Positions 4,187 to 62,327 of a DNA stretch of 64,000 bases are shown here, in pieces. Position numbers and translations under genes: made by a program. Source of the DNA: Eledone cirrhosa. Taxonomy: Eukaryota. Every line of letters begins with the position of its first letter. Within the stretch, counting starts at the first letter, position 1. Location of the stretch: NCBI GenBank assembly GCA_964016885.1, contig OZ024740.1, positions 87,978,001-88,042,000 of the forward strand. The letters run 5' to 3'. The notes below the pieces were generated by a model. It was given only the letters and a program-made list of their open reading frames with translations. It did not search any database and was not told where the DNA came from.

Positions 4187-4233
4187 TGCTCCGAAGACTC
4201 CAAGCCTAGATTTGGATGGAACAATTGTAAGTG
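4187..4233 (+). ncRNA. Hammerhead-like fold (type I, one core mutation)
   Basis: TGCT-CCGAAGA-C-TCCAAG/TTTGGA-T-GGAA (for GAAA), palindromic stem III ACAATTGT, A17, stem I partner AGTG, then AATAAA. Lies at the 3' end of the TA-flanked segment 3526-4268. Confidence 0.6.
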
Positions 4234-4719
4234 AATAAATGTTTTGAACATAGCTTTGATTCTTGTGAATTATATATATATATATATATATATACACACA
4301 CATATGTATATAAAGATATATATTTATACAACAATCTTTTTCTTTGGTCTTTTTTTTATCATTTATTCATTTATATTACCTCTGAATAAGTACAATATGT
4401 GATTATATTTTGCTATATTCAATATATTTTCTTCCATCTTCTTTTACTATATTATTATAGCATAAGTATTAGTTAATTATTTGTATTGAAACATTTGTAA
4501 GGTTATTAAATGATTTAAGAAACCTATACTATCATCTTAATATGTTGAATAAGCTCTATTTCTTCTTTTATTAAACATTCCTTCTATATTTCTCTCAATA
4601 ATGGCATTGAGCTTAAAAATATTATCAACATCTTTTATGCGTGAGCCTCCTATCTGTCATTGGGAGCCATGGGATGGACACACAAAGGTTGCGTATCCCG
4701 ACATCACAAAAATAGTTCG

Positions 4720-5215
4720 GAAGGAAGCAAATCGTAACAACTAGAACCTGGAACATCACATCCCTTACAGGTAAGGAACATGACTAGTGGAGGAGGTTAG
4801 ATGTTACCGGTTACATATAGTAAGGGTTTCCTCAACAAAGTTATGTGGCTTTAGTACTGTAGATTTGGATGAAAAATAGAAACTCCACTATTCAGCTGTG
4901 GTGCCAGAAATGAGTTGCACAGGTGGGAGTGGAGATACTCTCAAGCCCCGGCTATCAAAATGTGTTATGAATTGAATCCTATTGACAGGGAGGACTTACC
5001 TCTTGAAGTTTAGGTTGAAAGATAGGCCTCTGAGTGTGGTGCAAGTCTCTGTACCATACACAGAGTCTGAATGCAGTAACTTCCTTGATGAAGTCACAGC
5101 AGCGTTAGATCTAGCTAACACTGAGTCATATATTTTAATAGGAGACTTCAATGCTCTGAACCGCTGAGATTGAAAGGAGTGATCGGAAGGAAAGGCAATC
5201 CCGATCTAAAGACGG
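4720..5215 (+). pseudogene. RTE-clade LINE AP-endonuclease remnant
   Basis: Broken frames read TWNITSLTGKE..LVEEV..SSTK..GVG..ILIGDFNA..GVIGRKGNPDL. Confidence 0.75.
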
Positions 5216-5471
5216 GATTAGGAACTCAGGACCTGGAATGCTGTTGCTATTGCGTACGTATTCAGAGAACTCCCTCAACAGAGGACGTTGAAATGGAGTG
5301 GATGCTTTAAAGTGGATATTTTAAATCACCCCCCCCCCCCACACACACACAGACACACACACACAGACACACACACACACACACAGACACACACACAGAC
5401 ACACACAAATACACACACACACACATATATATAAATATATATATATATATGTTTATACACAGAACAAGTAA

Positions 5472-5521
5472 ACCACTACCTTAGGTTTCAAGATGCATTT
5501 ATGACCATCTCCTCAGATTGT
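5472..5521 (-). ncRNA. Degenerate hammerhead-like fold
   Basis: Minus strand ACAAT-CTGAGGA-GATG..CATC-TT-GAA-ACC/GGT-A-GTGGT; stem I has one mismatch. Confidence 0.5.
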
Positions 5522-6314
5522 GCACGGTGGTGCAGAATACGCGGAGGAGTGATCAGAACCGTTAACCAGTTATCATGCCCAGGGACGAGTTTGAAAATGC
5601 CGTTAAATGTATAGCGTGTATTTATTTATTTAGTTATTTATTTATCTATTTGTTTATGATATATTACAAATGGGAAATAACTCATTAAGGAAAATTGAAA
5701 TGTGTCAGTGTGTTCGCTATTGTATGTGGTATATAAATTTGTATTTATGAGTGTGTGTATGTTTCTCTGGGTATTGAGTATTGTAGGTAGTGTGTGGCGC
5801 TATGAGGGTATTAACATATGTGTATGCGTATTAAACAATGAAAGAATAAGACAGGTTAGAAAGAATAAGGGAAGTAGTAAATTAATCCATTGTTTTACGA
5901 TCGTTCCTGAGAGTACAAATATTGATGTGTAGACGAACTAATGGCAGTTATGCAACTCCGTACCTTTAGCATGGAAAGGTAAATCCTTTCTGCTCCCTAT
6001 CCTTTGGGAAGCAAAATGTAAGTGCTTTTTTGGGGCTAATGTTATGGAGTTGCATCACATAGAAAATTGTGCTATCTGAAACGATCCTAAAATGGATGGA
6101 TTAACTACTTCTATTTGTCTTCTAACATCTAACTCTGTAGTTTTTAATACCCAACAATGCACGAGAGTATCATCTGTCCACGAAGATAGATTTTACTTTG
6201 CTTCGATAGGGGGATTAACGTTAACATCATATCGAGTTCTAGAATGGTTATAAATCCTACCTGAATTTGATGCACACACACACACACACACATACACAGA
6301 CACAGATATATATA

Positions 6315-6374
6315 TTTCCAGAAATAGCCGTCGAAACAGCTTGAGCTCTGCCGTCAGGGTCCTGAACATTTTCA
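6315..6374. repeat. Motif K copy 2 (inverted relative to 943-1000)
   Basis: TCCAGAAATAGCCGTCGAAACAGCTTGAGCTCTGCCGTCAGGGTC. Confidence 0.85.
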
Positions 6375-6575
6375 TATATATATATATATATATATATATA
6401 TATATATATATATATATATATATATATATATATATATATATATACATATGTATATATATATGTATATATATATATATATATATATATATATATATATATA
6501 TATATATACATATGTATATATATATGTATATATATATATATATATATACATATGTATATATATATGTATATATAT

Positions 6576-60871: not shown

Positions 60872-61149
60872 AGTTCAGATAAGGAGAGAACAGGTATGTA
60901 TATATATAGGTGGATTCTTCCGTCGTATTTCGACGTATGATGGTTCAACAATTCAGCTACTGATTAACACATCAAGCTGCATTTAATGTAGATCACATGA
61001 TTTTGAGAGGAGCAGGCTGGAAGATTTGATCGAATCTTTGTGTTAGATCTTGGATCACGAAGATGGACCAGATGATATTTTTGAAAGTTCTTTGTATGTT
61101 CATGGCTGACAGTTCTTCATTTTCCAGGGTCTGCTTCAAAATAAGTAAA

Positions 61150-61310
61150 AGGTATTTTCACAGATTTAAGATTGTACATCAGTTTGATTTTATATCTGAG
61201 TAATAGTCTGCCTACATTATTTGCACTATTATGAAGTTGACTGTATAGCAGTACCTTGGGTTTATGGTCCCCAGTAGGACATGACCAACTCATCAAACTT
61301 GGGAGTGCAT
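61150..61310 (-). pseudogene. Ancient RTE C-terminal remnant
   Basis: Minus strand DHKPKVLLYSQL..GRLLLRYKIKLMYNLK. Confidence 0.5.
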
Positions 61311-61369
61311 CAGAACTGACTCAATCTCACCGAGGTTGCACCTCGTGAACAGTTATATATTTTCTTTTA

Positions 61370-61765
61370 TTATTTACTTGTTTCAGTCATTAGACTACGG
61401 CTATTCTGGGCCACCACCTTTAGTTAGTCGAACATATCTACCCCAATACTTATTTGATCGATCTGTTTTACAGAACGCACACACACACACACACAGACAC
61501 ACAGACACACACACACACACACACACACACACACACACACACACACACACACACACAAACACGCACATACGCACACACGTATATTTATGTATATATGTAT
61601 GTATACGGCAAGATTCTGCTGTTTTTTCTCCAGCTAGCAAATTCCACTAATAAGGCATTGGTGTACTTGAGGCTGTTATAAAAAATAACAAAGCACTTGT
61701 CTAAGTTGCAAAGCAGCCGGACGGAAGCCTGAACCAAGTGGTTGCAAAGTGAACTCCTCAAACAC
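61370..61765 (-). mobile_element. Second SINE type with internal (CA)n and a CR1-like tail
   Basis: Minus-strand tail GGTGGTGGCCCAGAATAGCCGTAGTCTAATGACTGAAACAAGTAAA resembles 51185-51230. Confidence 0.6.
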
Positions 61766-61879
61766 TATCTACCTATCTATCTATTTCTCTGTCTATCTTT
61801 TCCTTTCTCCTTCTTCTTTTCCCCTTTCTCTCTCTCTCTATCTATATATATATTATGCATGTTTATATGTGTATATATG

Positions 61880-61975
61880 ATTGGACTCTCAATCATGAGG
61901 TTGTGAGTTCGATTTCCGGACCGGGCGATGCGTTATGTCCTTGGGCAAGACACTTTATTTCACGTTGCTCCTTCT
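61880..61975 (+). mobile_element. Third SINE-type fragment (tRNA B-box + TGTCCTTGGGCAAGACACTTT core)
   Basis: GAGTTCGATTTCC followed by a typical central SINE domain. Confidence 0.55.
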
Positions 61976-62291
61976 ACCTGGAGTTGCGATCGATAGAAAG
62001 TATTAGCAATTGGAAAGACCAATGGAAACATTGTTTCCTCGGTCCGATTTGACGAAAGTCGATCGACTGTCGATATGTATAAATATTATGTATGTATGTA
62101 TAAAATGTATGTCGATAAAATAAAGTACCAGTAATGCACTGGTAATTGCTGGCCTTGTGCCAAAAGTAGAAATAATTATGTATGTATATATGTGTATATA
62201 TGTATATAAAAGGTAAACAAAATAACTACACAATCAGTACAGTATATGGAAGGAATATATTAGTTTAACGCTTGGAATAGCAGGAAGAGGG

Positions 62292-62327
62292 TCTTTACGT
62301 TTCGGACGCTCGTCCTCCATCAGAAGA
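62292..62327 (-). ncRNA. Family D hammerhead (element 62208-62327)
   Basis: TCTT-CTGATGGA-GGAC(GAGC)GTCC-GAA-ACGT-A-AAGA. Confidence 0.75.

Follow-up and report, generated by a model that had tools for sequence, protein, structure and literature searches.

Penelope-like elements (PLEs) are the closest mobile relatives of telomerase. Hammerhead ribozymes in PLEs, Hydra elements in octopus, and retrozymes together with their PLE origin are already in print (bioRxiv 2026.07.22.740005; PMC6765202; PMC3088659, as far as their accessible parts go), and the stretch analyzed here, a 64-kb window of the 3.0-Gb genome of Eledone cirrhosa (contig OZ024740.1; all window coordinates are relative to its start), is a real and very dense instance of this known system, with a testable cis-signal. 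Its hammerheads lie near the 3' ends of elements inserted in (TA)n tracts, of which some are truncated coding PLEs and others are retrozymes, units devoid of open reading frames (ORFs) that were likely copied by PLE enzymes of the Hydra clade; this reading, whose mechanism we infer, is given a probability of about 0.8. The broader statement, that the window contains PLE ends plus retrozymes mobilized by PLEs, can be made with somewhat greater confidence still.

Four described systems come closest. The minimal and small-palindrome hammerheads of PLEs, as presented in the accessible text of PMC4209133, are likewise of type I, with an extra base after A9, a long stem II and a palindromic stem III; they also belong to many heterogeneous families, mostly occur as single truncated copies, and form opposite-strand pairs 100–700 bp apart. 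The U3-A8 variant from the same source is matched here by the PLE family designated P1, whereas a fixed C-A mismatch at the base of stem II in family A and a fixed U4A change in family D are unlike the hammerheads presented there. Members of the Hydra clade, including Hydra-1_Obim from Octopus bimaculoides (PMC8557442), share with the window elements the RWK-like, DKT, CxCX5C, CxxC, and CxH motifs, a canonical hammerhead, the (TA)n target, partial tandems, an inverted 5'-truncated copy, and a tail at one end. Their tails are of 30–40 nucleotides (nt), versus 80–120 nt here, several young, abundant, and intact families are found in the present genome, and the available sections of that paper, unlike the present data, do not speak of a conserved bulged hairpin at the two ends. 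Metazoan retrozymes of the non-LTR (long terminal repeat) type (PMC7229834; bioRxiv 10.64898/2026.07.22.740005) likewise consist of ORF-less units in tandem, each a few hundred bases long and low in GC, with one type I hammerhead per unit and a proposed origin from, and mobilization by, PLEs. The units described here, known from DNA alone, differ by showing per insertion the two-arm footprint of PLEs in (TA)n (the words "inverted" and "microsatellite" are absent from the PMC7229834 text available) and by sharing a cis-signal with one PLE clade, unlike the published retrozymes as far as the accessible parts of these two sources describe them. Finally, in the Poseidon PAc element of Anolis (PMC11167929, in part) both strands are nicked and extended, two internal starts bound the tail, the target is AT-rich, a dimer is predicted, and a stem-loop lies at the start; there it is one AC-rich stem-loop without target homology, whereas here there are two hairpins and TAT ends matching the target.

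The window is AT-rich, with 102 (TA)n tracts of (TA)6 or longer and fragments of several reverse transcriptase (RT) elements; no host gene was seen within its 64 kb. A first-pass annotation had listed 26 hammerhead folds in more than 10 families of short non-coding elements, and all 26 positions carry a type I scaffold, 18 with canonical cores and eight, in agreement with the core mutations it had noticed at several sites, with altered ones (A13G at 4187; U16.1C at 39155; U4A at 40687, 41653, and 48955; A6G at 53382; A9G at 60838 and 62292). A strict descriptor (CYGANGA, stem II, GAAA, stem III, UH, stem I, with one extra base tolerated at the foot of stem II) gave 11 matches in the window, all among the 26 listed sites, whereas 40 block-wise dinucleotide shuffles averaged 0.38. 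When one core mismatch was tolerated, 15 matches scored 10 or more, again all among the 26, versus 0.13 in 15 shuffles; an earlier descriptor lacking the extra base after A9 had recovered only 2 sites in the window. In a 400-kb genome sample, made up of 40 stretches, each of 10 kb and taken at round coordinates, the strict scan, which is blind to U3-A8 and scrambled cores, yielded 33 matches in 19 of the 40 stretches and 0–2 in six shuffles (mean 0.8). The comparison with shuffled controls, proposed along with the annotation, thus came out in favor of the motifs on both scales. Sites missed by the descriptor were judged by eye and by family homology; the weakest, judged within the window only, are 5472 and 60838, with poor stems.

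The 26 sites fall into 14 families, and four site pairs are the two arms of one insertion each, which leaves about 22 insertions. Their association with (TA)n was also well founded, (TA)5 being present within 250 nt downstream of 21 of the 26 cut sites versus 25% of random positions, but the downstream AATAAA said to be frequent occurs within 60 nt at just seven of the 26 (background 6.5% per 60 nt). The kinship assumed with both PLE termini and retrozymes is seen in the families themselves, as B, D, and E are the ends of coding PLEs and A, C, I, and J are ORF-less units; consequently, the description "short non-coding elements" is correct for A, C, I, and J (nine sites) and wrong for B, D, and E (six of the 26). 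This class assignment covers A, B, C, D, E, I, and J (15 sites), the remaining F, G, H, K, L, M, and N making up seven families with 11 sites.

Families B (sites 17243 and 17478), D (40687, 41653, and 48955), and E (42099) are represented by 5'-truncated ends of protein-coding PLEs. In other copies their hammerheads lie in sense behind ORFs with RT and GIY-YIG, with tandem periods of 4165 nt, 3265 nt, and about 3.6 kb, respectively; the B copy serving as the unit carries a frameshift. A fourth coding family, P1 (period 3531), has five stubs in the window, outside the earlier list, and is young and intact, with 150 scored matches at 93–100% identity, many of them with a 784-amino-acid frame, and 49,708 first-look candidates genome-wide. 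A single ORF with RT and, at its C-terminus, a GIY-YIG domain was recognized from motifs in the translations of B, D, E, and P1, and PLE protein neighbours in a sequence atlas bear HTH_animal and GIY-YIG; Pfam and PDB sequence searches with the P1 protein gave no match. All four families show partial tandems, an inverted 5'-truncated arm, a one-sided tail, and a terminal repeat that contains a hammerhead. The Hydra marks given in the accessible part of PMC8557442 (RWR/RWK-like, DKT, CxCX5C, CxxC, and CxH motifs; (TA)n target), compared by eye, are present as a full set in P1 and D and as the N-terminal motifs in B, and all three resemble Hydra-1_Obim by eye. Judging by these motifs, P1, B, and D resemble Hydra-type PLEs. 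Family E has, by eye, a Neptune-type linker and a GIY-YIG-like block, features by which Neptune and Nematis were not told apart. The P1 hammerhead folds with a U3-A8 core and a GUC site (locus L115, G000:C1:437198000-437216000), and stray P1 copies mostly have their start in a stretch of about 10 nt at the stem II base, which suggests RT stalling on that helix.

Families A, C, I, and J are composed of head-to-tail units with one type I hammerhead per unit and with longest ORFs of 50–95 amino acids. The unit lengths are 553 and 522 nt in A, about 486 in C, 490 in J, and 339 in I, the periods of I and J coming from one or two tandem loci each; folded as circles, the units of all four beat shuffles (z −2.8 to −6.4). 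Three subfamilies of A are present in the window, A1, A2, and A3, and an exact family A pattern has 10,325 matches genome-wide (reversed control 0). A3 has at least 104 separate long-end junctions at 98–99% identity on many chromosomes, and none of the 90 insertions examined runs into an ORF. For F, G, and H, the three families that this search covered, 16, 16, and 14 loci, respectively, were inspected over 1.5 kb and showed neither a period nor an ORF; at least 1 kb of upstream sequence is common to other copies of family H, with no ORF seen. At one further locus (L261, 1-1180) a 42-nt minisatellite has grown from inside a family H copy.

Wherever a family is represented by sufficient copies, its insertions stop against (TA)n at two fixed 3' ends, both ending in TAT and 60–120 nt apart, one at the long site and one at the short site. 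In the A3 set, which comprises 90 of the 104 exact long-end junctions and was chosen by the long end alone, an inverted second arm is present in 56 insertions, and four run off the stretch. The 56 second arms end at the short site in 39 cases, at the long site in one, and irregularly in 11, with five off the stretch, i.e., a long end is paired with a short one in 39 of the 40 insertions having both ends at fixed sites. Many arms (37 of 124, from 89 loci with one duplicate dropped) are longer than one unit, and one holds about 35 units. Locus-private variants are common to both arms at three loci (L026, L122, and L126) and differ between the arms at two (L119 and L121). A tail at one end only has been described in PMC8557442 and PMC3846280, and in PMC11167929 a one-sided tail is tied to two internal RT starts, according to the parts of these papers available.

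At 1–7 nt past each end there is a bulged hairpin, in which a YTC/GAR lower stem, followed by a bulge of 2 nt on its 3' side, carries a variable stem-loop on top. All 14 start sites of A1, A3, B, C, D, J, and P1 have it, as scored with a descriptor derived from the same sites first scored, over a background of 8% per 12-nt window and 0.7–15% in per-site shuffles. For a held-out test, 141 tails of two-armed insertions were grouped in 37 clusters, 11 in families already seen and 26 held out. The hairpin was found in nine of the latter, versus about 1.6 summed from one-member shuffles; divided by tail length, it occurs in 8 of the 11 clusters with tails of at least 80 nt and in 1 of the 15 with shorter tails. 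In the PMC8557442 supplement, Hydra-1_Obim is directly preceded by a record, to judge from the order of the file a coral element, that by eye ends in the same hairpin. Hydra PLEs and families A, C, and J all carry the hairpin beyond each of their two ends, which suggests that Hydra enzymes move these retrozymes; that the hairpins are start signals for copying is somewhat more probable than not. A literature search, with most subscription papers outside it, returned no twin start-site hairpins, two-armed retrozymes, or cephalopod hammerhead load, and the word "ribozyme" does not occur in the available text of an Octopus vulgaris repeat annotation (PMC13282606).

Regarding the ribozyme fold, 91.5% of cells are paired across eight distinct variants of family A, and 7 of 21 pairs changed on both sides, with variant relatedness partly controlled and the structure read from those same sequences; the covariation score was reached by none of 500 shuffles, and slid controls paired 36–49%. 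The compensatory changes in stem II and the invariant core imply selection on the fold. The palindromic stem III, considered suited to dimers in the first-pass annotation, pairs between units in the predicted fold of an A3 tandem dimer: without constraints, two 10-nt palindromes form an inter-unit helix III, the arrangement proposed in the accessible text of PMC4209133, and both hairpins are formed. The 5' ends of A3 complementary DNA (cDNA) are stepped at the predicted cut, 19 falling in the 20 nt from it onward (expected 5.5) and one in the 20 nt before (expected 5.1). This step is compatible with run-off at a cleaved end, with stalling of the RT on a ribozyme that is folded but uncut, and with microhomology. 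A pile of A3 5' ends at monomer position 1 proved to be a boundary artefact. No clear cut-site pile-up was present in B, C, E, F, G, H, I, and J, and 4 of 49 ends lie within 3 nt in D, all in query-biased samples. It is also worth mentioning that short repeated fragments at or just past the predicted cut occur at arm junctions (loci L129, L310, and L383), resembling successive template jumps at the 5' end of an RNA.

In the proposed mechanism, the GIY-YIG domain would nick both strands of a (TA)n tract, and each DNA end would be set on a UAU located a few bases 5' of a bulged hairpin, there being two such hairpins downstream of the ribozyme, separated by 80–120 nt. A pair of RT active sites, as in the dimer predicted for another PLE (PMC11167929, in part), would start one per hairpin, copy toward the 5' end, and usually stop early, and the two cDNAs would be joined head to head. 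One start per hairpin and head-to-head joining would yield one long end, one short end, and a one-sided tail. The retrozymes would probably be copied from a circle or else an uncut multimer, made from tandem transcripts whose neighbouring units would pair through their palindromic stems III, which would let the ribozyme cut as a dimer; the odds of a circular RNA template are slightly below even. Most single stubs are likely dead by-products. A bolder version, offered tentatively as it is a little less probable again, is that Hydra-clade enzymes read a two-hairpin code, with one RT site per hairpin and target strand, and that ribozyme circles keep this code to hijack them, with rolling-circle copies of up to 35 units and cDNA ends recording germline cleavage.

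Several results weigh against the reading given here. The blastn comparison of the A, C, and J units with coding PLEs gave no match, and the hairpin and the footprint are therefore the only links to Hydra enzymes. The first hairpin count is circular in the sense stated above, the overall held-out fraction is 9 of 26, and the hairpin is weak at both sites of the non-Hydra family E and absent at both sites of I. As many as 30 of the 90 A3 insertions are one-armed, one of the 40 has two long ends, 11 have an irregular second end, and PAc uses the same start sites on both strands in vitro (PMC11167929, in part), whereas the arrangement here is a near-strict one-long-one-short. In addition, the A3 5'-end pile peaks 6–16 nt downstream of the predicted cut, in AT-rich sequence, and just 3 of the 124 ends come within 1 nt of it (expected 0.8, p 0.045, uncorrected). 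The accessible parts of the literature add that the PAc hammerhead is dispensable in vitro (PMC11167929) and that eight of nine Xenopus retrozyme dimers failed to cleave (bioRxiv 2026.07.22.740005). In family D the U4A core, CAGAAGA, is present in 24 of 24 copies of a young family with an intact 709-amino-acid ORF, and is either a tolerated variant or the mark of a dispensable ribozyme. An explanation in which the ribozymes are passive, the templates are uncut linear multimers from donor arrays with rare cutting, and the hairpins, close to the starts but not setting them, serve for protein binding or packaging draws on this fixed U4A, on the few ends exactly at the cut, on up to 35 cut sites read through in one arm, and on the low or absent in vitro activity of PLE hammerheads (PMC4209133; PMC11167929, both in part). 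It is nevertheless the less likely of the two, as the fold of family A has kept its core and compensated its stem II, and the hairpin stays 1–7 nt from the ends in different families despite a site spacing of 80–120 nt.

Two further explanations dispense with mobile ribozyme RNAs or with ribozymes altogether. All families could be the truncated or deleted debris of coding PLEs, with the short tandem units as local satellites produced by unequal exchange and never mobile RNAs of their own. This holds for B, D, and E, and agrees with the higher-order variant periods of 2–4 units in five arrays, unlike between the arms at some loci, which fit later unequal exchange and are thus one more point against our reading, as well as with the local amplification of pLTRs proposed in the available part of bioRxiv 2026.07.22.740005. 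Debris of this kind would hardly produce the 104 or more A3 long-end junctions on many chromosomes with fixed ends and a fresh inversion point each, none of the 90 insertions reaches an ORF, and subfamily variants are common across loci and, at L026, L122, and L126, across both arms; the explanation is accordingly regarded as improbable. The palindromic inserts could also be TA-favoring miniature inverted-repeat transposable elements (MITEs) with hammerheads as chance matches, in keeping with long inverted arms flanked by TA. Also in keeping with it, Rfam at the gathering threshold recognized no hammerhead in the window; at E up to 1 there was none among the matches listed (150 of 241), which are mostly microRNA models on simple repeats. 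The folding energy of single motifs is mostly no better than that of shuffles, being clearly better (z < −3) in 2 of 14. The case for hammerheads consequently rests on the descriptor, the covariation, and the copy families. The excess over shuffles (11 versus 0.38 and 33 versus 0.8), centres that differ per copy, unequal and multimeric arms, the one-sided tail, and coding relatives that are RT elements leave the MITE explanation hardly any credence.

The sample density of 80 per Mb (bootstrap 50–113) corresponds, extrapolated from 400 kb, to about 240,000 hammerheads per genome (150,000–340,000); the window, with 172 per Mb, is about twice as dense. At about one hammerhead per 12 kb, this is the densest load found reported: the accessible parts of earlier papers count about 9,000 hammerheads in Xenopus and about 4,000 in the coelacanth (PMC4209133), and up to 120,000 retrozymes in the axolotl and about 5,000 in the mussel (PMC7229834), these figures and the present one coming from differing descriptors. 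The first-pass annotation went too far in assigning much of the apparently unique DNA to ribozyme retroelements, as the named families make up 14.6% of the window and 4.0% of the 400-kb sample, to which PLE ORF matches add 10.8 kb, overlapping the named families in part.

Table 1. PLE-related and hammerhead-bearing features of the 64-kb window (strand "." for two-armed insertions).
Feature	Position	Strand	Details
Family K end, hammerhead	4132..4268	+	core 4191, GAAA changed to GGAA; intact-core relative at locus L061
Family M, degenerate hammerhead	5456..5600	-	core 5516; stems I and II weak; weakest site
Retrozyme A1 (522-nt unit), two-armed	8874..9660	.	minus arm >1 unit, short-site end, core 8999; plus arm long-site end
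Retrozyme A1, about one unit	9709..10275	+	core 10027; long-site end
Family F end	10281..10433	+	core 10295; start-site hairpin 10363-10383
Family B, two-armed stub of coding Hydra-like PLE (unit 4165 nt)	17114..17584	.	cores 17299(-), 17485(+); tail hairpin 17172-17193(-)
Retrozyme A2, two-armed	22128..22906	.	core 22372(-)
Family G, minimal hammerhead	25148..25352	+	core 25250; ends in (CA)n/(TA)n
Family H end	26715..27113	-	core 26848, CCGAUGA, long stem II
Retrozyme C (unit about 486 nt), two-armed	27667..28747	.	cores 27834(-), 28480(+); tail hairpin 28646-28676
Family F end	31110..31269	-	core 31241; hairpin 31153-31173
Retrozyme I (339-nt unit), about one unit	34040..34385	-	core 34245; without bulged start-site hairpin
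P1 (young intact Hydra-like PLE), two-armed stub	35487..35620	.	hairpin 35551-35574; hammerhead cut short; absent from first-pass list
Other P1 stubs	953-1012, 6317-6361, 38431-38505, 58808-58865		
Family G copy	39128..39275	+	core 39159; U16.1 mutated
Retrozyme A3 (young, 553-nt unit), two-armed	39680..40602	.	short end left, long end right; cores 39827(-), 40337(+); tail hairpin 40494-40517
Family D, two-armed 3' piece of coding Hydra-like PLE	40666..41813	.	unit 3265 nt, 709-aa (amino acid) ORF; U4A cores 40732(-), 41658(+); tail hairpin 41730-41775
Family E, 3' end of coding PLE, putatively Neptune-type	41959..42189	-	core 42138
Family L end	42361..42512	+	core 42415; tail hairpin in relatives
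Retrozyme J (490-nt unit)	48503..48762	+	core 48612; short-site end
Family D end	48845..49081	-	U4A core 49000
F-related end	53304..53440	-	core 53426 (A6G); hairpin 53341-53361
Family N, G-like minimal hammerhead, weak	60781..60898	-	A9G
Family G copy	62241..62326	-	core 62323 (A9G)

Different PLE families have insertions that adjoin or are nested in common TA tracts (10276-10281, 31255-31269, 40602-40666, and 41813-41959), which indicates that the tracts serve as landing pads and may lengthen whenever an element inserts. A TA-flanked inverted element at 33658-34018 and 42668-42756 has two unequal arms as in PLE insertions and no canonical hammerhead was seen in it; the plus arm of the copy at 33658-34018 is tRNA-like (Rfam tRNA at 33854-33924, 48.6 bits). 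More TA-flanked elements are located at 2894-3082, 3260-3479, 31269-31499, 33429-33602, and 38216-38344, with tails of about 40–65 nt and the bulged hairpin mostly absent; in the family of the element at 2894-3082, other copies (loci L065 and L098) carry a hammerhead. The window also contains an abundant family of short interspersed elements (SINEs) of about 190–270 nt, which we take to be the octopus SINE, at 1664-2295, 11824-12019, 15233-15457, 16585-16773, 25767-25953, 26519-26709, 27245-27434, 29776-30305, 38644-38860, 44847-45033, and 60067-60699. Broken RT or transposase elements lie at 6580-8761, 10758-13807, 14112-16520, 23150-24611, 31574-32457, 49454-51168, and 63067-63615; they bear the Pfam domains RVT_1, Exo_endo_phos, zf-RVT, and DUF7041, and are presumably RTE-like, L1/Tx1-like, a long interspersed element with a restriction-like endonuclease, LTR-type, mariner-like (102-bp inverted ends), and CR1/L2-like.

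The questions touched by these findings are how PLEs choose the start of copying, what causes the one-sided tail, and whether PLEs mobilize retrozymes. This genome offers a test system for them, composed of a young intact Hydra-type enzyme, a 553-nt non-coding substrate with at least 100 fresh insertions, two defined hairpins, and a ribozyme predicted to cut as a dimer. Several percent of such a genome is PLE-derived and easily mislabelled as MITE, SINE, or unique DNA, and the potential RNA-cutting sites and sources of fold-back RNA in this fraction number in the order of 10^5.

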